Origin: Escherichia coli
GTDB lineage: Bacteria > Pseudomonadota > Gammaproteobacteria > Enterobacterales > Enterobacteriaceae
Assembly (NCBI RefSeq): GCF_001677475.2
Contig: NZ_CP015229.1
Strand: one strand, 5' to 3'
Length of the DNA stretch: 64,000 nucleotides
In this document: positions 7,010 to 48,616 of the stretch, one piece after another
Position numbering within the stretch: the first letter of the stretch is position 1
Layout of the letters: every line of letters begins with the position of its first letter
Notes under the pieces: model-generated
The model's input: the letters and a program-made list of their open reading frames with translations, nothing else
The model's database searches: none
What the model was told of the DNA's origin: nothing
Translations under genes and position numbers: made by a program

Positions 7010-8161
7010 ATGGAATGGTACATGGGCAAATATATTCGTCCCTTATCCGATGCGGTATTTACCATCGCATCTGATGACCTGTGGATCGAGAGTTTAGCGA
7101 TCCAACAATTACACACCACGGCAAATTTACCCAACATGCATCGCGTAGTGGGGATGCCAGATTTACACCCCGGACGTGGCTACCCGATTGGCGCAGCGTT
7201 CTTCTCCGTAGGTCGTTTTTACCCGGCGCTGGTCGGCAATGATATCGGCTGCGGCATGGCGCTATGGCAAACAGATATTCTCGTGCGCAAGTACAACGCC
7301 GATAAGTTTGAAAAGCGATTATCAGCTTTGGATGACGTTGCTGAAGAAAGCTGGCTGGAGGAAAACCTGCCGTCAGCGTTTGCACTACATCCGTGGCGCA
7401 GCTCGCTTGGCTCCATCGGCGGTGGCAATCACTTCGCTGAACTGCAACAGATTGATCAAATTATCGACGCGGAACTGTTTGCACTGGCAGGTCTGGATGC
7501 GCAGCATCTGCAACTGCTGGTTCATAGCGGATCGCGTGGTCTGGGGCAGTCTGTTTTACAAAAACATATTTCCACATTCTCGCATCATGGTTTGCCGGAA
7601 GGCAGTGATGACGCGATGCGCTATATCGTGGAACATGACGATGCGCTGGCGTTTGCTCGCATTAATCGCCAGATGATCGCCCTGCGCATAATGCAACAGG
7701 TGAAGGCTACGGGAAGTCCGGTTCTGGATGTGGCGCATAACTTCATTACCGCGAGTAAAATTGGCGATCAACAAGGCTGGTTACACCGTAAAGGGGCTGC
7801 GCCAGATGACAGTGGCCTGGTGGTTATCCCCGGTTCACGCGGTGATTACTCATGGCTTGTACAGCCTGTCAGTAGCGAAGAAATATTGCATTCGCTGGCG
7901 CATGGGGCAGGACGTAAATGGGGGCGCACCGAGTGCAAAGGACGGCTGGCAGCGAAATACACGGCGACGCAACTTACGCGTACTGAACTTGGCAGCAGGG
8001 TAATTTGTCGCGATAAACAGCTCATCTTTGAAGAGGCGCCGCAGGCCTATAAATCGGCAGAAAGCGTGGTGCAATGTCTGGTGCAGGCCGGTTTAATTAT
8101 TCCTGTCGCGCGGCTGCGCCCGGTGCTGACACTCAAAAACAGTGGAGGGAAAAAAGGATGA
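7010..8161 (+). CDS. RtcB-family RNA ligase paralogue (RtcB2-like), full length
   Basis: 383 aa; GGGNHF motif and HNF motif region typical of RtcB; stop overlaps the prfH start (ATGA at 8158-8161). The K-12 counterpart (ykfJ) is a pseudogene. Confidence 0.8.
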
Positions 8162-16664: not shown

Positions 16665-16740
16665 GCCGATATAGCTCAGTTGGTAGAGCAGCGCATTCGT
16701 AATGCGAAGGTCGTAGGTTCGACTCCTATTATCGGCACCA
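16665..16740 (+). tRNA. thrW: tRNA-Thr (anticodon CGU)
   Basis: 76 nt GCCGATATAGCTCAGTTGGTAGAGCAGCGCATTCGTAATGCGAAGGTCGTAGGTTCGACTCCTATTATCGGCACCA; cloverleaf with CGT anticodon and encoded CCA end. Confidence 0.95.
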
Positions 16741-21422: not shown

Positions 21423-22226
21423 ATGTCTATTCAGGGGCGACATTTGCCAAATTATCTAAACTGGCTGATGCAGAATACGCTACCCGGTCAGGTGCTGCTC
21501 CAGTCATGGCTTACCCGCAACGGCGTAGATCGTAAGCTCTCTTACCTCTATGTCCAGAATGGCTGGCTCAGGCGGATCGCTCACGGCGTATACTGCCGGA
21601 CGGGTCGTGAACCGGACTGGGTGGACGCGGTTTACTGCCTGCAAACACAGTGGGAAAAGCCAGTACGGGTGGCGGGGCTAACCAGCCTTGCGCTTCAGGG
21701 CCATGCGCACTATACCGAACCGGGTAAGCCGCAAATCTGGCTCGCGCTTCCGGCTTACGTCAAACTGCCGGGATGGTTTGCTGCCTTCGAACAATCTGCA
21801 ACATTTATCACGCTGTATACATCGGGCCTTACCGTTGATGTCACGTCATTTACTACGGAACTGAAAATTGGCGACCGGCAGTTAGCAGGCAGTGCCCCGG
21901 AACTGGCCGCGTATGAGATCGCCTGCGGCGTTCCTTCGTTGATATCGTTCGAACATGCCGATGCTCTGTTTCAGGGGATGAATCTTCTCAGCCCGCGTAA
22001 ATTGCAGGCGTTACTCTGCGCCAGTCATTCGGTTAAAACCAACCGGGTGATGCTTTACCTTGCCCGGCGTAATGGACACCCTTATTTTCAGTATATTGAT
22101 CAAAGCGGTATAGAAACAGGTACGGGAAAGCGGCAAATCATACCCGGCGGCTGGCTGGAGCCGGATTATCAAATTACTGTTCCACGCGAATTTAAACCGG
22201 AAGGAGTCGAAGATGGATCTGCGTGA
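21423..22226 (+). CDS. AbiEi-family antitoxin / transcriptional regulator (type IV TA, abortive infection)
   Basis: 267 aa; N-terminal winged-helix pattern (LTRNGVDRKLSYLYVQNGWLRRIAHGVYCRTG) typical of AbiEi; overlaps the downstream nucleotidyltransferase gene by 14 nt. Confidence 0.65.
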   Translation: MSIQGRHLPNYLNWLMQNTLPGQVLLQSWLTRNGVDRKLSYLYVQNGWLRRIAHGVYCRTGREPDWVDAVYCLQTQWEKPVRVAGLTSLALQGHAHYTEPGKPQIWLALPAYVKLPGWFAAFEQSATFITLYTSGLTVDVTSFTTELKIGDRQLAGSAPELAAYEIACGVPSLISFEHADALFQGMNLLSPRKLQALLCASHSVKTNRVMLYLARRNGHPYFQYIDQSGIETGTGKRQIIPGGWLEPDYQITVPREFKPEGVEDGSA

Positions 22227-23133
22227 TAGCTATACCCGGCAGGTCAAACTGTTGATGGCCGCTCTGCCGCATGTGGCGAAGGAGTCCTGTTTCGCGTTGA
22301 AAGGCGGCACGGCAATCAATTTGTTTGTGCAGGATTTTCCCCGTCTGTCGGTGGATATCGATCTGGCGTATAAGACTTTTGCGGATCGCGATACCGATTT
22401 GACGGCGATCAACGACGCTTTGAAGAGAATTACTGCATCGCTGAACAGTAAACCGGGGATTACCGCGATTCGGCAGGAAAATAAAACGGATGAAAAGCGC
22501 ATCATTGTGAATACGGCTGATGCCCAGATTAAGATCGAGGTTAGTCCGGTCTGGCGTGGGCTGTTGTTGCCTCCGGCAGAAATGTCGGTGTGCGAACGTG
22601 TGGAAATGGAGTATGGCTTCACCACTATGAGTGTCGTTTCGCTGGCGGATCTTTATGGCGGTAAAATCTGCGCAGCGCTTGATCGTCAGCACCCGCGCGA
22701 TCTGTTTGATGTGCTGAATATGCTGGAGAAACCGGGACTGATGCGGGAGATCTTTGACGGTTTTCTTTGTTATCTGGCAGGCCATCCCCGCCCCATTGCC
22801 GAGTTGCTGGCCCCAAACTGGGATACAGAGCGGATCACGACGCTGTATGCCCAGGAATTTTCGGGGATGACTCAGCAGGAAACGTCGCTGGAATCGCTGC
22901 TGTCAGTAACGACTTTGCTGCCGCAGGCGTTGAAGTCACATCTTACGGATCTGGATCGCGAGTTCTTGCTCAGTTTTAAGCAAAACAGCCCTGACTGGTC
23001 GCGGTATCGCTATCCTGAAATTCAGCATCTTCCGGCTATTCGCTGGAAGCAACGCAATCTGGCGGTGCTTAAAGATAAAAATCCGGCGAAGTATGTGGCG
23101 GCGGTGAATAAGCTAGAGAGGGTGCTGGAGTAA
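22213..23133 (+). CDS. AbiEii/AbiGii-family nucleotidyltransferase toxin (DUF1814)
   Basis: 306 aa; N-terminal LKGGTAINLF and DIDLAY motifs of the AbiEii nucleotidyltransferase fold; translationally coupled to the upstream AbiEi-like gene. Confidence 0.75.
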   Translation: MDLRDSYTRQVKLLMAALPHVAKESCFALKGGTAINLFVQDFPRLSVDIDLAYKTFADRDTDLTAINDALKRITASLNSKPGITAIRQENKTDEKRIIVNTADAQIKIEVSPVWRGLLLPPAEMSVCERVEMEYGFTTMSVVSLADLYGGKICAALDRQHPRDLFDVLNMLEKPGLMREIFDGFLCYLAGHPRPIAELLAPNWDTERITTLYAQEFSGMTQQETSLESLLSVTTLLPQALKSHLTDLDREFLLSFKQNSPDWSRYRYPEIQHLPAIRWKQRNLAVLKDKNPAKYVAAVNKLERVLE

Positions 23134-23538
23134 TATTCTTAGCGCTGTTCAGGGACTCTGAATTGGGCCATGATGCTTTGGTTATATGAATAACTTCGTG
23201 GCCATAACTCAAACATATTCATTTAATTCAATACATAGCACCATCGAGTAAGAGATCGCTGAGTCATTAGACGATCTCTGCTCGTGGAAATACGAAACTA
23301 TCTCTTTCCAAAGCTGATCTGAATAACATTATCTGGAGCATCATTATTAGACCTGATGATCTCATGCTCAATAAAATCCCCCCATTTCAAAAAAAGATCC
23401 CGTAATTTTTCCGCCTGCTGCCCGACCTGATAAGTTCTGATTAATCTGTCTTTCGGAACATGATTCAACAGAAGTTCTATAAGCCGTTCTGGCGCATCCA
23501 GATACTCAGCACAGCCTGTAGAGTGCAGGTGCAGACAT

Positions 23539-24438
23539 TTAAGCCAATTGCTGCCGCCATTCCTTGACGTGGTCAATCAGGGCGCGGAGCTTTGGTGCAA
23601 TATTGCGACGCTGTGGGAAATACAGATAGAAGCCCGGAAATTGTGGAAGAAAGTCATCAAGCAGCGATACAAGCTTACCGCTTTCAATATATGGCCTGAA
23701 CGTTTCCTGAGTGGCAATTGTTATTCCTCCGCCGGCAAGAGCCAGCCTCAACATCAGACGCAGATCATTCGTCGTAATCTGCGGTTCAATCGCAAGGTCG
23801 AAAGCTCTACCGTTTTCTTCAAATGGCCAGCGATAAGGAGCAACCTCCGGGGACTGACGCCAGCCGATACACTTATGATTCACAAGTTCACGCGGGTGAA
23901 CAGGTGTGCTGTTGGCTGCGAGATAGGAGGGAGAGGCAACGACCATTTCACGCTGCCTGGCGGTAAGGGGAACAGCAATCATGTCTTTTTCAATGACCTC
24001 TCCGAGCCTTACGCCAGCATCGTAACCTGCGGCAACGATATCGAATTCCTCATCCGTGACAACAATATCAAGCGTAACGGCTGGATTGGCAGCTGCAAAC
24101 GAAGCGATTAGCGGACCTGAAAGAAATTCTTCTGCTATCGACGTCACCGCGATTCTGAGATGTCCACGTGGTACATGGTCAGAAACCATCTCTTCGAACG
24201 CTGCCTCAATACCGGATAAAGGTAATGACAACGATTTATGCAGCCGTTCTCCCGCTTCCGTCAAATTAACTGAGCGCGTGGTCCGCATTACAAGCATTGT
24301 CCCGAATGCATCTTCAAGGCGTCTTATTCCCTGACTGACCGCTGAACGGGTAACGCCCAGTCGTGCGGCGGCTTTACTGAAATTACTCTCTTCTGCTACC
24401 GCGATAAAAATGGGTAAAAGATTAAGATCGATTTTCAT
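23539..24438 (-). CDS. LysR-family transcriptional regulator
   Basis: 299 aa; N-terminal HTH (FSKAAARLGVTRSAVSQGIRRLE) and LysR substrate-binding domain; divergent from an SDR gene. Confidence 0.85.
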   Translation of the reverse strand: MKIDLNLLPIFIAVAEESNFSKAAARLGVTRSAVSQGIRRLEDAFGTMLVMRTTRSVNLTEAGERLHKSLSLPLSGIEAAFEEMVSDHVPRGHLRIAVTSIAEEFLSGPLIASFAAANPAVTLDIVVTDEEFDIVAAGYDAGVRLGEVIEKDMIAVPLTARQREMVVASPSYLAANSTPVHPRELVNHKCIGWRQSPEVAPYRWPFEENGRAFDLAIEPQITTNDLRLMLRLALAGGGITIATQETFRPYIESGKLVSLLDDFLPQFPGFYLYFPQRRNIAPKLRALIDHVKEWRQQLA

Positions 24439-24536
24439 TGTTTAATGCCGCTAACCACTGAGTACATTGAAAGCAGGATACTGGAACCAATCATAAAGTT
24501 CTATTATCTCTCCGAACACATTTGAAGGAGAACGTA

Positions 24537-25259
24537 ATGGATAAGGTCATATTAATCACCGGCGCATCAAGTGGTATTGGGGAAGGTATTGCCAGAGAAC
24601 TGGGAACGACAGGTGCGAAGGTTTTACTGGGCGCACGCAGAGTTGAGCGTATCGAAGCCATTGCAACCGAAATCTGCCTCGCAGGAGGAATTGCTAAAGC
24701 GCGGGAGTTGGATGTCACAGACCGACAGTCCATGGCCGATTTCGTGCAAGCAGCGCTGGATAACTGGGGGCGAGTTGATGTTCTTATCAATAATGCGGGC
24801 GTTATGCCGCTTTCACCGCTTGCAGCAGGAAAACAGGATGAATGGGAGCTCACTATTGACGTGAATATCAAAGGTGTACTGTGGGGAATTGGCGCTGTAC
24901 TTCCGGTGATGGAAGCACAGGGTTCCGGTCAGATAATCAATCTTGGTTCTATTGGTGCCCTTTCTGTTGTGCCCACAGGCGCAGTCTATTGTGCATCAAA
25001 ATTTGCAGTACGGGCTATTTCTGATGGCTTACGGCAGGAAAGCTCGAAAATCCGTGTGACCTGCGTAAATCCTGGCGTTGTCGAAAGTGAACTGGCTTCA
25101 ACCATTACCCATGTGGAAACCATGAAGGCAATGGACGCCTACCGTTCTGTTGCACTTCAACCCGCGGATATTGCCCGTGCTGTAAGGCATATTATTGAAT
25201 CTCCCGAAAGCGTTGATACAACCGAAATTACCATCAGACCCACTGCATCTGCAAACTGA
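24537..25259 (+). CDS. Short-chain dehydrogenase/reductase (SDR) family oxidoreductase
   Basis: TGASSGIG Rossmann motif and the S...YxxxK catalytic pattern (YCASK); start taken at MDKVILITG. Confidence 0.85.
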   Translation: MDKVILITGASSGIGEGIARELGTTGAKVLLGARRVERIEAIATEICLAGGIAKARELDVTDRQSMADFVQAALDNWGRVDVLINNAGVMPLSPLAAGKQDEWELTIDVNIKGVLWGIGAVLPVMEAQGSGQIINLGSIGALSVVPTGAVYCASKFAVRAISDGLRQESSKIRVTCVNPGVVESELASTITHVETMKAMDAYRSVALQPADIARAVRHIIESPESVDTTEITIRPTASAN

Positions 25260-25470
25260 AGAATAACTTTTACATTCACGTTTTATTAAATATGTCAGAA
25301 GGAAAATTTATATCCACCTGTTTTGCATAGCAAGATGCATTATGTATTGCTCACCCCGAAGGAGATGAAGTTTTAATTACAGAAGGAGTATTTTCTCTTG
25401 GAGTAAATATGGCTCATGTTTAATGCCTATGTATATAAAACTCATCCTCTCAATTGTCAGGAGAATTAAC

Positions 25471-25701
25471 ATGAATACTATCTGTTCTTTAATTGTTGTG
25501 GTTACACTGTCTTTATTATCATTCAGTAGCGTCGCCAAAACGATTACTGCCGTCGGTTCAACCATCGACAGCACTGAAAAAGAAATTTCTTTACAGGCAG
25601 AAAAACAAGGAAAATCATATAAAATTCTGGGCGCATTTTTCAAGAACAGAGTTTATATTATAGCAAAGTTAACACCAGTCAGTAAAAATGATGCTTCATA
25701 A
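25471..25701 (+). CDS. Small secreted DUF1471 (YdgH/BhsA/McbA-like) protein
   Basis: About 76 aa with a signal peptide (MNTICSLIVVVTLSLLSFSSVA) and a mature part resembling the BhsA/YhcN family; boundaries uncertain. Confidence 0.5.
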   Translation: MNTICSLIVVVTLSLLSFSSVAKTITAVGSTIDSTEKEISLQAEKQGKSYKILGAFFKNRVYIIAKLTPVSKNDAS

Positions 25702-25752
25702 GGCTCATGATATAATTTTTAAGACATGATCAAGAAGCACGTTTATTTATTC

Positions 25753-25880
25753 ATATACTCTAAATAATTCAAGTTGCAGGAAGGCGACAAGTGAGTGAAT
25801 CCCCAGGAGCTTACAAAAGTAAGTGACTGGGGTGAATGAACGCAGTCGCAGCACATGCAACTTGAAGTATGACGAGTATA
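25753..25880. repeat. ERIC/IRU element, copy 2
   Basis: Over 90% identical by eye to the copy at 6873-7008 (GTGAATCCCCAGGAGCTTAC ... AAGTAAGTGACTGGGGTGAATG). Confidence 0.85.
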
Positions 25881-26031
25881 ATTATCATTATTATGGCCAT
25901 GGAATACCTGACAAATGACGCTACCCCAACCTTCTGTACCAGTCGTTCTGCTAATTCTACCGATGCTTCGGTCTGGAGTGGTAGAGTAATATTAGACACA
26001 GTTTTATTTTCTCTCTTTTTCGAGGGCTGTA

Positions 26032-26297
26032 TATGAACAGGAAGAATACATCCCTAAGCGGTTAATGCTGGCGTAATCAATAGACCAGCATTAATCACAG
26101 ATGATTATCAATCAGACAGAAATGGTTAAATCGTCGAATTCATAATTAATACTTTTTGTAACGCCGCTGAATAGCTTGAAAAGGATGTATATTTTAAATA
26201 TCAGTGAAGTGAACAGTTTATTGCCGTTATTAATAGAAATGGAGGAATAAATACGCGTATTCTACTATTGCAACAAAAACAACGATATTGATCATTT
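26032..26297. repeat. Intergenic repeat module, intact copy (two halves contiguous)
   Basis: First half matches 44674-44784 and second half matches 45478-45622 (for example TATTTTAAATATCAGTGAAGTGAACAGTTTATTGCCGTTATTAATAGAAATGGAG); contains an internal inverted repeat TTAATGCTGG...CCAGCATTAA. Confidence 0.7.
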
Positions 26298-26527
26298 TTC
26301 ATAATGAAGTAACCTGACAGATATAAAAATGTTGATTGAGGCTAAATGCCCGGATGAAGGTTGTCGAGGGAGCCAGGTTGTTTTTTCTTTTGGATGATCT
26401 CCATTGCTGGATAGTCCCCTTGTACAGATAAGTCTGCTCTTTCTCGCTCAAAGCAGACCCTGGAATTGAACGCAGAGTGACTACCTGACACAATATTGCA
26501 CCGTGAAGAGTCGGTCGTTGTTAACGT

Positions 26528-27412
26528 TCAGATTTTCAATGTATCAATGACCATCCGCAGAGCGGGGGAGACGTTGCGATGAGGGTAATAGAGAAACAAT
26601 CCCTCCATTCGCAGGCTGTAACGCTGCAACACTCTGATAAGCTTACCGTGTTCTAAATCATCCGCGACCAGTTCAACAGGAACATAGGCCAATCCGAGGC
26701 CCAGCCGGGCTGCTTCTGCTTCCATATAGCTGTCGGATAAGGCCCATTGCCCTTCAGGGCGATGAGTGATTTTTTTATCATCCTGATTGAGTTCCCACTG
26801 GTATACGCTGCCGTCGGCAAACTGATAGGCGATACAGGGATGCGCCTTTAAATCCGCCGGGGTTTGCGGAAAACCATAGCGACGAAAATGTTCCGGAGTC
26901 CCCACAATTGCCATCTCCATATCGGGCGTGATGCGTACCGCGACCATGCCCTGACCGACTTCAGGCCCCAGGCGGACACCTGCATCGAATCTTTCCTCGA
27001 TGATATCGACGAACCGGCTCTCATTTATCAGTTCAAGCCGGATATCAGGATATCGCTGTTTAAATACCGCCAGCTTTGGCAGCAGGCATTTATCAATCGC
27101 GTGCTGGCTGGCATTGATACGCACCGTGCCGGAGGGCGTCTCTCGATAGTGCGCCAGCGTGGCAAGCCCAAGATCTAACATTTCAAATCCAGATGCCGTC
27201 TTCTGGTAGAGCTGCTCGCCTGCTTGTGTCAGCGACAGTTTACGCGTGGTGCGCACTAGCAGCTGGACGCCCAGCCTTTCTTCAAGCTCGCGAACAGAAC
27301 GGCTGACTCCTGACTGAGCAAGACCCAGCCGCTGAGCTGCTGCGGTAAAGCTGCCTTCCCGCACCACCTGCATAAACAGGTACAGCTCGTTGTAGTTCTC
27401 CCTTTTCGCCAT
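26528..27412 (-). CDS. LysR-family transcriptional regulator (position of K-12 yagP)
   Basis: 294 aa, HTH (FTAAAQRLGLAQSGVSRSVRELE); divergent from a hydrolase/MFS gene pair. Confidence 0.85.
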   Translation of the reverse strand: MAKRENYNELYLFMQVVREGSFTAAAQRLGLAQSGVSRSVRELEERLGVQLLVRTTRKLSLTQAGEQLYQKTASGFEMLDLGLATLAHYRETPSGTVRINASQHAIDKCLLPKLAVFKQRYPDIRLELINESRFVDIIEERFDAGVRLGPEVGQGMVAVRITPDMEMAIVGTPEHFRRYGFPQTPADLKAHPCIAYQFADGSVYQWELNQDDKKITHRPEGQWALSDSYMEAEAARLGLGLAYVPVELVADDLEHGKLIRVLQRYSLRMEGLFLYYPHRNVSPALRMVIDTLKI

Positions 27413-27598
27413 TGAAACATCCCCCCTTCATGCCGGCAATCTCCGCATTAATTTATAACAATATGGTATTAATCTTAGCATTAATCGCCCCCTAATCAGC
27501 ACTAATTCTGCTCATTATAATGACCCCATCAAAGCAAAGCACCGCAGCGTTGTCCGTCGGAAACCTGTATCTCTCTGTTGTTTTTTATGGGGATTTTT

Positions 27599-28735
27599 AT
27601 GAAAGCCTTCACCCGAACGCTAAAAACCGCGATGCCGACCATGTTGCTTTTCGCATCATTAAGTGGAGTCACGACAATGAGTTATGCTGATTCAACCAAT
27701 CCTAATGCCCCTGTGTCCATGACAGATAAATGGGATAAAACGTTCGCCGAGAGCCAGAAAGTCGATCACCGTAAAGTCTCGTTCCCGAACCGATATGGCA
27801 TCACCTTAGTGGGCGATCTTTACCTGCCTAAAGACCGTGGCGATCGCAAACTGGCGGCGATTGCGGTCAGTGGGCCATTTGGCGCGGTGAAAGAGCAATC
27901 CAGCGGCTTGTATGCGCAGACGCTGGCGGAACGAGGGTTTGTTACCCTGGCGTTCGATCCTTCTTACACCGGGGAAAGCGGCGGCTATCCGCGAAACGTC
28001 GCCTCACCGGATATCAACACTGAAGATTTCAGCGCGGCGGTGGATTTCTTAGGGCTGCAAAAAGAGGTAGATCGCAACCGTATCGGGCTGCTCGGTATTT
28101 GTGGCTGGGGCGGCATGGCGCTGAACGACGCGGCGATGGATACCCGCGTTAAAGCGGTAGCTACCAGCGTGATGTATGACATGAGCCGGGCGATGGGTCA
28201 TGGTGTGGGGGATGGCAAAGACCGTTATTCTATCGCCGACCGTCGTGCTGTTCTGCAATATCTGAATGAACAGCGCCGGAAGGATGCGCAGAGCGGAACG
28301 TTCGCTCACGGTGGTCATGATATTAATGTCGATAGCAACGGCAAGGTCAGTGCTGGCGAGCGCATTCTGCCAGAAACGCTGCCGGCAAATCCTCATCCGG
28401 TACTGAAAGAGTTCTTTGACTACTATCGCATGCCGCGCGGCTTCCACGAACGTTCCGTTAACTCTACCGGGGCGTGGACGGCAACGATGCCGCTGTCATT
28501 TATGAATATGCCGCTGTTGAGCTACGCCAGTGAAATCACCATTCCGACGCTGATTGTGACCGGTGAGAAAGCACATTCACGTTATTTTGCTGAAGATGCT
28601 TACAAGGCGGTTGGCAGTAAAGACAAAGAGCTGGTGGTGGTACCAGGGGCAAATCACGTGGACCTGTACGATAACGTGGCCGGAAAAATACCTTTCGCGA
28701 AGTTCGAACAATTTTTCCAGACCAAACTGAAATAA
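27599..28735 (+). CDS. Secreted alpha/beta-fold hydrolase
   Basis: Signal peptide, then an alpha/beta hydrolase-like core (GICGWGG nucleophile-elbow-like motif); start taken at MKAFTRTLK. Confidence 0.7.
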   Translation: MKAFTRTLKTAMPTMLLFASLSGVTTMSYADSTNPNAPVSMTDKWDKTFAESQKVDHRKVSFPNRYGITLVGDLYLPKDRGDRKLAAIAVSGPFGAVKEQSSGLYAQTLAERGFVTLAFDPSYTGESGGYPRNVASPDINTEDFSAAVDFLGLQKEVDRNRIGLLGICGWGGMALNDAAMDTRVKAVATSVMYDMSRAMGHGVGDGKDRYSIADRRAVLQYLNEQRRKDAQSGTFAHGGHDINVDSNGKVSAGERILPETLPANPHPVLKEFFDYYRMPRGFHERSVNSTGAWTATMPLSFMNMPLLSYASEITIPTLIVTGEKAHSRYFAEDAYKAVGSKDKELVVVPGANHVDLYDNVAGKIPFAKFEQFFQTKLK

Positions 28736-28810
28736 AACCTCTCCTGAATTGATGCAAAGCCACCGGTCTATGGCAGGTGGCTTTTATCCTGATCTTTGTG
28801 AAATTTCACT

Positions 28811-30004
28811 ATGTCGACACTAAGCCAAACACTATCACCTCATCATCAGCGCGCATACTGGGGCGGTATTTTTGCCATGACCCTGTGCGTGTTTGTGCTG
28901 ATTGCTTCTGAATTTATGCCCGTCAGCCTGCTCACGCCGATTACCCGCGATTTAGGCGTGACGGAGGGGCTTGCAGGGCAGGGGATTGCTATCTCCGGCG
29001 CGCTGGCGGTTCTGACCAGCCTGACGCTTTCAACGCTAGCTGGAAAGATGAATCGTAAGTTCCTGCTGCTGGGGATGACGGTTCTGATGGCCGTATCGGG
29101 GCTTATTATTGCGCTGGCTTCCAGTTATCTGATGTATATGGTCGGTCGTGCGATGATTGGGGTGGCCATTGGCGGTTTTTGGTCGATGTCAGCGGCAACG
29201 GCGATTCGTCTGGTGCCGCAGCATCAGGTTACGCGTGCGCTGGCGATTTTCAACGCCGGTAATGCGCTGGCGACGGTCGTGGCCGCGCCGCTGGGAAGCT
29301 ATCTGGGGGCCACGGTCGGATGGCGAGGCGCTTTCTTGTGCCTGGTGCCTATCGCGGTTGTCGCCTTTATCTGGCAGTACATCAGCCTGCCCAGTATGGA
29401 TGCGAATAAAAGCCACACGTCAGCTGGCGATGTATTCCGCATACTTAGCCGCCGCGTGATTGCGGTTGGCATGCTGGCCTGCGGCCTGTTTTTCATGGGG
29501 CAGTTTGCACTATTCACCTATGTGCGCCCGTTTCTGGAGTCGGTGACACGGGTTAATTCCTTAGGCTTGTCGTTGATTTTGCTGATTATCGGCGTGGCCG
29601 GTTTTATTGGCACGCTGGTTGTTTCGGCATTTCTCAACAGAAAATTCTACCCCACGCTGATGGCCATACCCGGACTGATGGCCGTCATTGCTATCGGTCT
29701 GATGCTTACCGGGCATCACGTCTGGACGGTCTCGCTGCTGTTAGGACTCTGGGGCATGCTGGCCACCGCCGCGCCAACCGGATGGTGGACATGGATTGCG
29801 CGTACGTTGCCTGACAACGCCGAAGCCGGAGGCGGCCTCATGGTCGCGGTGATTCAGCTCGCCATCGCCCTTGGATCAACGGCAGGAGGCATCGTGTTTG
29901 ACCGCCTTGGCTGGCAGAGTACGTTTGCCATGAGTAGCGTGCTGCTCCTTTGCGCGGGCGTACTGACCTTTGTTACCGCACGCCAGAAGGCCGGTGCGTT
30001 TTAG
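28811..30004 (+). CDS. MFS-family transporter
   Basis: 397 aa, about 12 predicted transmembrane helices, MFS-like loop motifs. Confidence 0.8.
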   Translation: MSTLSQTLSPHHQRAYWGGIFAMTLCVFVLIASEFMPVSLLTPITRDLGVTEGLAGQGIAISGALAVLTSLTLSTLAGKMNRKFLLLGMTVLMAVSGLIIALASSYLMYMVGRAMIGVAIGGFWSMSAATAIRLVPQHQVTRALAIFNAGNALATVVAAPLGSYLGATVGWRGAFLCLVPIAVVAFIWQYISLPSMDANKSHTSAGDVFRILSRRVIAVGMLACGLFFMGQFALFTYVRPFLESVTRVNSLGLSLILLIIGVAGFIGTLVVSAFLNRKFYPTLMAIPGLMAVIAIGLMLTGHHVWTVSLLLGLWGMLATAAPTGWWTWIARTLPDNAEAGGGLMVAVIQLAIALGSTAGGIVFDRLGWQSTFAMSSVLLLCAGVLTFVTARQKAGAF

Positions 30005-30183
30005 TCCGGCGAGGGGGCGCGTTGCTGAATAAGTTACACACGGCGATGAGCGCCCACTATGGGTTGGGCGCTCTTTTAAACGATTTAGGTGATTTTCTAA
30101 AACGGCTACTGCAAATTTTTCTCTTAATTTATGGGTATTTCCCCCGGAGGCGAGAAAGCGCTCTCCACGCCCGGCCGCAAGGA

Positions 30184-31140
30184 TCAGGACGACGGGGGCA
30201 GGCATGAATCCTCCTCCAGATGGAGACGTACAGAGGCAACTTCTGCCAGCACAGAGAGGGCCAGTGTATGCGCATCCCGGGCTTTGGGGAATATCCCGAT
30301 GGGTGCCCGGATTTGCGCTGTCTCCTCCCTGGACCATCCCAGCTCGTGGAGCTTTTGCAGACGTAAAGTGTGGGTTCGATAGCTGCCCAATGCGCCGAGA
30401 TAAAAGGGTTTTGCCTCTCGCGCGGCCTGCAACACTGGCAGCTCCCGGTTGAGATCATGGCACAGCAAAATGACCGCCGTATCGGTATCGATCTGAGCGC
30501 TGGCTGAGGCCGGAAAAAGATCGAAGATATGGTTGTCATAGCCTGTGGCTGCTGCAAGACTCGCGGTTGCCTGCGCCTCAAGAGAACCTCCGTAAATCAA
30601 CAGCCTGACGCATGGCCTGAACCCTACCTCAAAGCCATTGAGATTCCAGCCCGTTCGGGTTTGCGTGGGCAGGCACACCAGCGATTGTGCTTGCGGATCA
30701 TAGCGCAGCCCCGCCGGTTTTCTCTGTTCCAGGCGGTTCAGCACGGCGAGCAGAGGCTGTGCCGTGCGTAGTTTATGGAGCGTCAGCGTGATCCCACCGC
30801 CGCAGGGCAGAACGATGTCAAACCACGGCGAACCTTCGCCATAGCGAATTTCGCGATCGCAGCCTGAGCCCATCATCTCCAGCGCTTCAAAAGCGGCAGC
30901 GGCCTCCACGCAGCCGCCAGAGACAAAACCGCAGTAACGACCATCTTCGCGCACCACCATCTGCGCCCCGAGCGGGCGCGCCGCGCCGCCGCGTATCTCC
31001 ACCAGCGTCACCAGCACCGCTCCTTTACCGGACATTAGCGCCTCTACGGCGAAGCGCAGAATGGTCCGGTGGTCATCGGTGAGAAACGCCTGCTCTGGCT
31101 TATGCCAGTGTTCGTCTTTGTCAAAAAGCGGGTATGACAT
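30184..31140 (-). CDS. paoD: Molybdenum cofactor insertion chaperone, XdhC family
   Basis: 318 aa; last gene of the paoABCD operon; XdhC/CoxI-like. Confidence 0.85.
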   Translation of the reverse strand: MSYPLFDKDEHWHKPEQAFLTDDHRTILRFAVEALMSGKGAVLVTLVEIRGGAARPLGAQMVVREDGRYCGFVSGGCVEAAAAFEALEMMGSGCDREIRYGEGSPWFDIVLPCGGGITLTLHKLRTAQPLLAVLNRLEQRKPAGLRYDPQAQSLVCLPTQTRTGWNLNGFEVGFRPCVRLLIYGGSLEAQATASLAAATGYDNHIFDLFPASASAQIDTDTAVILLCHDLNRELPVLQAAREAKPFYLGALGSYRTHTLRLQKLHELGWSREETAQIRAPIGIFPKARDAHTLALSVLAEVASVRLHLEEDSCLPPSS

Positions 31141-44378: not shown

Positions 44379-44673
44379 TCAGTCATCTGTGCGCATTACT
44401 CTAACTGGCACTCGAACGTCGGCGATGGGGTTGCCGGTGGATCAGGCTGTTCCTGTGGCGTAAACGTTTTTATGTTAGTACCAACAGATTTACCACATTT
44501 ATCATCTTAACAGTTTGAGTGAAAATGCAGGCTGCGCCGCAAAGGGAGGAGACTGAGTGGCGTGTTCAGTCTAAAAGAGAGTTGATGCCAGCATACAGGG
44601 GCGAAGCTGGTCAACAAGTCAACATTAAGATAATGGAATATTCGGAGAGAAACGTCAGGCAGTTGGCCTCAAA

Positions 44674-44784
44674 TGAACAGGAAGAATATATCCCCAGGAA
44701 AATTAATGTTGGTGTTATAAACACACCAACATTAATCCGATCTGATTATTAATCAGACAAATATCGTTAATCCGTCGAATTTTG
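44674..44784. repeat. Intergenic repeat module, split copy, first half
   Basis: Matches 26032-26140 (ATGAACAGGAAGAATA...CCGTCGAATT); ykgO/ykgM follow directly. Confidence 0.7.
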
Positions 44785-44786
44785 AA

Positions 44787-44927
44787 TCAACGTTTTTTCT
44801 TACGACCCTGAACGGCCTTAAAACGTGGATTAGATTTACAAATCACATATAGCCGTCCTTTTCGCTTCACAATCTGACAGTCTGGATGGCGTTCTTTTGC
44901 GGTACGCAGAGAGTTAAGGACTTTCAT
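44787..44927 (-). CDS. ykgO: 50S ribosomal protein L36 paralogue, zinc-independent type
   Basis: 46 aa [46 protein letters not shown]; start overlaps the ykgM stop by 1 nt. Too short for the ORF track; found by manual translation. Confidence 0.9.
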
Positions 44928-45477: not shown

Positions 45478-45622
45478 ATATAATAATTACTTACAAAAAG
45501 GGAGAGGATGCATATTTTAAATATCACTGAAGTGAACAGTTTATTGCCGTTATTAATAGAAATGGAGAAATAAATAGGCGTATTCTACAATTGCGACAAA
45601 AACAACGATATTAATCAGTTTA
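45478..45622. repeat. Intergenic repeat module, split copy, second half
   Basis: Matches 26141-26297 (TATTTTAAATATCACTGAAGTGAACAGTTTATTGCCGTTATTAATAGAAATGGAG...AACAACGATATT). Confidence 0.7.

Positions 45623-46672: not shown

Positions 46673-48616
<1,944 letters not shown>

Follow-up and report, generated by a model that had tools for sequence, protein, structure and literature searches.

The ovrB-z0347-z0348 trio of Escherichia coli O island 9: an ancestral block deleted in the K-12 lineage and a mobile regulator-hydrolase-transporter module

O island 9 (OI-9) was catalogued in the comparison of Escherichia coli O157 with K-12. It comprises 6,132/6,133 bp (EDL933 323996-330128) and holds z0342-z0348, in which z0342 and z0346 encode LysR regulators, z0343 an oxidoreductase, z0347 a hydrolase, and z0348 a transporter of the major facilitator superfamily (MFS) (Liu et al. 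2019, PMC6768210; review PMC8565820). The z0346 product, OvrB, was characterised in 2019 as a virulence activator that, in strains positive for the locus of enterocyte effacement (LEE), binds the LEE1 promoter and activates ler, in experiments carried out in O157, O55:H7, and O145:H28 (PMC6768210). No function has so far been established for z0347 and z0348. Among related systems, PgrR of K-12 is listed as regulator of ycjY-ymjDC-mpaA and described as regulating peptidoglycan recycling genes (PMC5934670), and the PA2218-PA2219(opdE)-PA2220 fragment of Pseudomonas aeruginosa is, like OI-9, variably present (PMC8088628, PMC7413544). Here we analyse a three-gene block at positions 26528-30004 of a 64,000-nucleotide stretch of E. 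coli DNA (hereafter the window; contig NZ_CP015229.1 of RefSeq assembly GCF_001677475.2), which an earlier reading of the letters and open reading frames (ORFs) by a model, the sequence-only reading, had presented as a LysR-hydrolase-MFS module of unknown specificity. OI-9 being already known, and ordinary as a genome feature, what is new here is the deletion history of the block, the origin of the K-12 yagP pseudogene, the behaviour of the trio as a discrete mobile unit, the placing of its hydrolase and transporter among known families, and a conserved control region that may be the native target of OvrB.

The block is almost certainly the right-hand, ovrB-z0347-z0348 part of OI-9, lying between the thrW integration hot spot and paoD. 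OvrB of the window is identical to Sakai ECs_0309 at 289 of 294 residues (98%), the representative of the hydrolase cluster is 99% identical to the window hydrolase, and the Sakai tags of the trio are ECs_0309, ECs_0310, and ECs_0311. From z0342 to z0348, between the thrW island and paoD, the window is collinear with O157 NE92 and Sakai, the block being absent from K-12. The gene content and boundaries also agree with the published ones (PMC6768210, PMC8565820), whose left edge falls 339 nt inside yagP, exactly at the junction read here. The sequence-only reading had correctly recognised three ORFs upstream of paoD, with the LysR gene divergent from the hydrolase and MFS genes, at the coordinates found here; it overlooked that the module had been described as OI-9 and its regulator as the LEE activator OvrB (PMC6768210, PMC8565820). 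All three genes are intact in the window, and they are real conserved genes rather than chance ORFs, since annotation lists the same trio in 912 of 5,426 complete E. coli genomes and also in several further genera. A tblastn search of the window found no second hydrolase or MFS paralog.

The same set of 5,426 genomes served for a megablast search with window 26200-30200 and for a junction probe. The whole block is present in the 912 genomes just mentioned, which include O157:H7 and O169:H41. K-12-type genomes match the query over its last 72 bases only, beside paoD, and no part of the trio is left in K-12. In a K-12 derivative, intF is followed by a tRNA fragment, then by yagP, a LysR pseudogene marked 'missing N-terminus', and then by paoD. 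The pseudogene translates to 112 residues, 110 of which (98%) are identical to residues 188-299 of z0342 (23539-24438), against an identity of only 29% to OvrB; an origin of yagP from the OvrB-type gene of the trio was rejected on these figures. The full-length z0342 ortholog of Sakai, ECs_0305, itself bears the name 'yagP'. In a blastn alignment, positions 7650-8005 of the K-12 locus match window 23522-23877 and positions from 8001 onward match from 30129 onward. Read base by base, the 5-bp sequence TTATG lies at either side of the junction, and this microhomology joins the yagP tail to a point 50 bp from paoD. The lost 6,256 bp contained the first 187 codons of z0342, the gene for a short-chain dehydrogenase/reductase (SDR), a small BhsA-like gene, a ykgR-like fragment, and the entire trio with the terminator that follows it.

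Because the gene whose tail K-12 retains is complete in the window, the OI-9-less state of K-12 can be attributed with high confidence to a deletion rather than to an insertion in O157. The trio is ancestral at this locus in E. coli, and the K-12 lineage lost it in a single deletion by illegitimate recombination. With a 411-bp probe, for which a coverage of at least 80% counted as a match, the K-12 junction was found in 2,683 of the genomes, including BL21 and enterotoxigenic (ETEC) strains; the loss is therefore old and widespread. 'O island 9' is accordingly the undeleted ancestral state and not a pathogen insertion, and about half of the sequenced E. coli, K-12 and BL21 among them, carry one old 6.3-kb deletion. 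The earlier proposal that K-12 is without the hydrolase and MFS genes, and that this is a loss, agrees with the alignment and with the yagP stump, as does its placing of a LysR fragment beside paoD followed by the CP4-6 integrase intF. The fragment, however, stems from z0342 and not from the regulator of the trio; the deletion extends beyond the absent trio to the SDR gene, the BhsA-like gene, and two thirds of z0342; and the loss is not specific to K-12.

Outside this locus, the trio is a discrete unit exchanged horizontally among Proteobacteria via thrW islands, prophage, and plasmid, because it is 86-91% identical between genera compared with 68-74% for flanking core genes. A Kluyvera locus matches the window only across 26443-30021, at 91.5% identity. 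The Serratia match covers 26528-29957 at 86.4%, whereas the flanking proBA and crl-frsA reach only 74% and 68%, and the Serratia trio lies 182 bp from a thrW tRNA gene, the same hot spot as in the window. In Serratia marcescens, Klebsiella michiganensis, and Dickeya chrysanthemi, the LysR gene and the hydrolase-MFS pair have this layout between unrelated neighbours; the Dickeya copy carries an extra cyclophilin-like gene. Elsewhere in E. coli, an 87%-identical allele adjoins the integrase gene of a lambdoid prophage, and an equally similar (87%) copy with an inserted BhsA-like gene lies beside a Tn3-family transposase gene on a Salmonella IncFIB plasmid, which we accept as true plasmid carriage. 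A more distant metagenomic module (L012), 47% identical, has the order LysR | MFS-cyclophilin-like-hydrolase, and its LysR and MFS proteins are still 42% and 55% identical to those of the window. This persistence with unrelated flanks, on prophage and plasmid, and in the rearranged L012 module, argues that regulator, hydrolase, and transporter are functionally linked. In a survey with one genome per species (80 loci returned), the neighbours within 5 kb of the hydrolase gene included an OvrB-like LysR gene at 17 loci, an orthologous MFS gene at 13, both at 11, and a cyclophilin-like gene at 12. All linked cases are proteobacterial; Bacteroidota, Firmicutes, and Gastranaerophilales have the hydrolase gene alone. 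At some Enterobacter loci the LysR and hydrolase genes occur with no MFS gene, which makes the LysR-hydrolase pair the core of the module and the transporter accessory.

In the Kluyvera genomosp. 1 copy (L024 3844-7420), OvrB and the hydrolase share 98% and 97% identity with the window proteins, far closer than expected between genera, which indicates either a very recent exchange or a mis-assigned isolate. In the Salmonella plasmid, the BhsA-like gene (L021:8091-8300) lies between the LysR and hydrolase genes and its product is 38% identical to that of z0344; genes of this type may be an occasional fourth member of the module. The cyclophilin-like gene (Cyclophil_like2, PF18050) found directly beside hydrolases of this family (L008:7234-7743, L012:4493-4858, and the 12 surveyed loci, e.g. 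L036, L039, L087, L094) sometimes replaces the MFS gene and sometimes accompanies it, and is absent from the E. coli module. We discount plasmid carriage for NZ_CP146678.1, NZ_CP104634.1, and two records of 4.9 Mb from E. coli and for NZ_CP076548.1 from K. pneumoniae, the inspected records carrying pao/ecp or tpx/mpaA chromosomal genes or being chromosome-sized. More generally, the PLSDB 'plasmids' NZ_CP146678.1, NZ_CP076548.1, NZ_CP141089.1, NZ_CP134663.1, and CP125156.1 are chromosome fragments or whole chromosomes, recognisable by the same genes or by lengths of 4.9-5.4 Mb, and such mislabelled records inflate apparent plasmid carriage. A LysR-SDR pair also lies near the trio in K. pneumoniae; at 30% and 28% identity to z0342 and z0343, it is not an orthologous pair.

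OvrB carries an N-terminal HTH_1 domain (Pfam E 1.4e-23, 83 bits) and a C-terminal LysR_substrate domain (E 4.7e-35, 121 bits), both above cut-offs. The 186-bp spacer between ovrB and z0347 contains three palindromic ATTAAT hexamers, at 27447, 27468, and 27480, and an operator-like, AT-rich conserved block at 27450-27481, followed by a -35-like TAATCA (27493-27498) and a perfect -10 TATAAT (27516-27521). When the spacers of E. coli, Serratia, Klebsiella, and Dickeya are aligned, conservation is seen in the operator and in the -35 and -10 blocks, and the rest of the spacer diverges; the Dickeya operator is a perfect dyad, ATAACAT-N10-ATGTTAT, which is degenerate in E. coli. An automatic scan reported no sigma-70 promoter in this spacer, because the -35 element is weak. 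A weak -35 is what an activator-dependent promoter should have. Our proposed promoter was read from the sequence by hand and from conservation across genera, and it would place the AT-rich block at about -80 to -45 from the start site that we infer. With the divergent layout, these features make it reasonably probable that OvrB controls z0347-z0348. Downstream, a hairpin between the hydrolase and MFS genes has a minimum free energy of -21.9 kcal/mol (z -2.66), and a hairpin followed by a U-run is found at the same place in six of six modules examined, with stems that differ in sequence; this recurrence suggests attenuation before the MFS gene.

The hydrolase ORF extends from a TTG at 27578 to 28735 (+), and its best-supported start is the ATG at 27599, which has a Shine-Dalgarno GGGGA 5 nt upstream and yields 378 aa, the length at which most homologs in other genera are called. 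Residues 1-30 resemble a typical Sec signal peptide with cleavage after SYA (N-terminus MKAFTRTLKTAMPTMLLFASLSGVTTMSYA, then DS). Export through Sec, called by eye and from conservation, is well supported by a positively charged n-region, a hydrophobic h-region, and an A-x-A-type site that are conserved among orthologs; the frame, length, and hydrophobic character of this segment are kept in Serratia, Klebsiella, and Dickeya despite divergence of the DNA, and residues 1-32 are disordered in the structure model. The secretion proposed by the sequence-only reading is borne out by this constancy of frame and length across four genera. The RefSeq annotation (PGAP) of O157 and O169 instead starts at 27677 (Met34 of the TTG-started ORF) and gives a protein of 352 aa that has lost the signal peptide.

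The hydrolase is a member of the PA2218/YcjY family, which it resembles over its full length in both sequence and fold; its Pfam matches (PETase, Hydrolase_4, Abhydrolase_1, DLH) are weak. The predicted catalytic triad consists of C168, the sole cysteine of the protein, in a nucleophile elbow G-I-C-G-W, with E323 and H353. The nucleophile column holds Cys in 120 of 133 representatives of 50%-identity clusters. Among the 33 representatives that span both sites, Cys is accompanied by the C-terminal His in 27, and the acid after strand 7 is Glu or Asp in 29; relatives that have lost the Cys are mostly without the His too. Across genera the hydrolase is 84-95% identical and its catalytic residues are conserved. 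Taken together, these features make a periplasmic cysteine hydrolase likely. Compared with the dienelactone hydrolases (PF01738; Cys-His-Asp), z0347 is larger (378 vs ~240 aa, with a lid or insert of ~110 residues), has Glu as the acid after strand 7, and is predicted to be exported; it scores 21.2 bits with the DLH model (cut-off 21), no single stretch being significant, and is not filed there. Its identification as the quorum-quenching acyl-homoserine lactone (AHL) lactonase UilS (NF047920) was rejected at 67.2 bits against a cut-off of 400, over the N-terminal half only. Feruloyl and polyester esterases, which free aromatic acids, are among its nearest neighbours by fold.

The MFS protein (MFS_1, E 6.7e-39) has its best NCBIfam match in NepI (NF007578 equivalog; residues 13-388), and like NepI (YicM) and other DHA1 exporters it shows a 12-transmembrane (12-TM) MFS_1 fold that aligns over the full length of the NepI model. 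At 292.1 bits against a cut-off of 584, it is NepI-like only and not an ortholog of that purine ribonucleoside efflux pump. Its other named relatives are the DHA1 exporters Cmx/CmrA, AraJ, and Bcr, and the NepI-like character suggests that z0348 may export its substrate. Annotated homologs from other genera have 395-400 aa, which supports the start at 28811 over the RefSeq/PGAP start at 28877 used in O157 and O169 (375 aa, with part of TM1 lost). Equivalog names with scores far below their cut-offs (YafC 192 vs 470, NepI 292 vs 584) were not adopted.

K-12 keeps a paralogous LysR-hydrolase pair, since pgrR (ycjZ) is divergent from ycjY and OvrB is 41% identical to PgrR. YcjY differs from z0347 in being without the signal peptide or N-terminal extension, and ycjY is followed by ymjC/D remnants and then mpaA, not by an MFS gene as in the module; PgrR-YcjY are thus paralogs and not orthologs of OvrB-z0347. 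A literature search returned nothing useful on 'yagP' and regulon tables only for 'YcjY' and 'PgrR'. The P. aeruginosa PAO1 fragment is related through the hydrolase family of PA2218; the 80 loci of the scan did not include P. aeruginosa.

We propose a working model in which OvrB, transcribed divergently from a two-gene z0347-z0348 unit, would have the ancestral local task of binding the AT-rich operator (27450-27485) and activating the z0347 promoter, with its weak -35 and perfect -10, in answer to a small molecule. The Sec-exported z0347 product would act in the periplasm through its Cys168-His353-Glu323 triad, most likely cleaving an ester, lactone, or thioester bond. The hairpin after z0347 would lower read-through into z0348, whose NepI-like product most likely exports the inducer, the substrate, or the product. 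Together, the two proteins could form an inducible two-layer module for detoxification or signal clearing of a small ester or lactone. Activation of LEE1 is most likely a lineage-specific extra output of OvrB. We regard this model, taken as a whole, as fairly probable, while the export or detoxification role of z0347-z0348 within it is put forward only tentatively. A unit with conserved regulatory DNA would offer a concrete route to the signal that OvrB senses, and hence to the input of LEE activation.

Several points weigh against the model. Deletions of z0347 and z0348 gave no adherence or LEE phenotype, and regulation of z0347-z0348 by OvrB lay outside the OvrB study (PMC6768210). The E. 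coli operator is not a canonical T-N11-A box of LysR-type transcriptional regulators (LTTRs), the dyad being perfect in Dickeya only, and the hydrolase occurs without an OvrB-like neighbour in 63 of the 80 surveyed species. The substrate class rests on fold neighbours of 17-24% identity, export was called by eye and from conservation, against the downstream start of the RefSeq annotators, and the NepI score is half of the equivalog cut-off, the direction of MFS transport not being readable from sequence. This last point also speaks for the inducible scavenging or uptake module of the sequence-only reading, in which a periplasmic hydrolase frees a product from an ester or amide, the MFS protein imports it, and the LysR protein senses it. 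A periplasmic hydrolase and a transporter under an LTTR are a common catabolic layout, and release of aromatic acids is what the esterases among the fold neighbours do. However, the unit is nowhere accompanied by downstream catabolic genes, the closest named relatives of the transporter are the DHA1 exporters listed above, and carriage on plasmid and prophage fits a tolerance trait at least as well; we consider uptake unlikely and do not favour the catabolic role. The PgrR-YcjY-MpaA parallel would instead make the trio a cell-wall peptide module, with a hydrolase acting on murein-derived periplasmic peptides and a LysR protein sensing peptidoglycan turnover products. This proposal appears improbable. 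That ovrB alone matters in E. coli, with z0347 and z0348 as unlinked or decaying passengers, would explain the silent deletions and the loss of the block from half of E. coli without obvious cost. Yet all three ORFs are intact in the window and in the 912 genomes, the hydrolase keeps its catalytic residues across genera, the linkage persists through gene-order rearrangement at 42-55% identity, and the regulatory DNA is conserved, which renders a passenger status quite improbable.

The history of the block has a rival as well. In the published view, OI-9 was inserted by lateral transfer in two acquisitions, in the O157/O55 lineage and in the lineage of group D extraintestinal pathogenic E. coli (ExPEC-D), and K-12 never had it (PMC6768210, PMC8565820). 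The clear horizontal mobility of the trio between genera favours such a transfer. However, the left boundary of OI-9 lies inside a gene, of which K-12 retains exactly the last 112 codons, and no insertion could supply the other two thirds of an already existing z0342. Further loss states also exist: in SE15 (phylogroup B2) the thrW island directly abuts yagU, with everything from z0342 through the pao operon gone, and MS 69-1 has kept the trio but misses z0342-z0345. We therefore retain the deletion in the K-12 lineage and hold the insertion to be highly improbable.

Table 1 Features of the OI-9 region in the window (strand '.' where none applies)
Feature	Position	Strand	Basis or remark
z0342, full-length yagP, second LysR regulator	23539-24438	-	110/112 residues match K-12 yagP
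Segment missing in K-12-type genomes, = OI-9	23878-30133	.	6,256 bp; TTATG microhomology at 23873-23877 and 30129-30133
z0343, SDR oxidoreductase, divergent from z0342, in OI-9 but outside the trio	24522-25259	+	adh_short E 4.6e-54; PMC6768210
z0344 / ECs_0307, small signal-peptide-bearing YdgH/BhsA/McbA-like protein	25471-25701 (ORF listed from 25423)	+	
Horizontally shared unit, trio plus <100 bp each side	26443-30021	.	Kluyvera L024 similarity
ovrB (z0346 / ECs_0309 ortholog), LysR-type regulator, 294 aa	26528-27412	-	ORF list, Pfam
Proposed divergent control region	27447-27521	+	read from sequence
z0347 / ECs_0310 ortholog, predicted exported Cys-nucleophile alpha/beta hydrolase, PA2218/YcjY family, 378 aa	27599-28735	+	
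GC-rich hairpin and U-tract after the hydrolase gene and before the MFS gene, likely to act as attenuator or partial terminator	28751-28788	+	
z0348 / ECs_0311 ortholog, 12-TM MFS transporter, NepI-like DHA1 group, 397 aa	28811-30004	+	
Intrinsic terminator after the MFS gene, GAGCGCCCA...TGGGCGCTC then TTTT	30048-30077	+	sequence and fold
paoD, XdhC family, convergent with the MFS gene	30184-31140	-	XdhC domains by Pfam

The surroundings of the trio are summarised in Table 1; in the ORF list, paoD is followed by paoC and then paoB. On the other side, thrW, a tRNA-Thr(CGT) gene at 16665-16740, is followed by a ~6.8-kb island that extends to 23521 and includes an AbiEii toxin gene (22213-23133) and an integrase fragment (23298-23576). 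A second copy of the thrW 3' end (attR) was not detected, and the boundary of island and backbone at 23522 is also the CP4-6 boundary in K-12.

Within OI-9, a 126-bp element resembling the enterobacterial repetitive intergenic consensus (ERIC) or intergenic repeat unit (IRU) occupies 25754-25880; its core is GTGAATCCCCAGGAGCTTAC and its ends form inverted repeats of 25 nt. This element, missing from OI-9 in O157 and O169, explains nearly the whole difference between the 6,256 bp of the window and the published 6,132 bp. An Rfam scan of 23000-30300 returned only a sub-threshold V_AS5 match, which falls on this element (48 bits vs a cut-off of 96). A truncated ykgR-like fragment at 26228-26296 (-) is ~90% identical to the true ykgR locus (45505-45621), 19 kb away, and a stretch near 26030 resembles window 44673-44823 (~73%); OI-9 is therefore in part a partial duplicate of the ykgR region. 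Near the true ykgR lies another LysR gene (46700-47635, +), whose product is 42% identical to OvrB and 38% to z0342, followed by genes for an aldo/keto reductase and then fdeC. The corresponding neighbourhood in SE15 also has a gene for a 306-aa alpha/beta hydrolase, absent from the window, that is divergent from a LysR gene.

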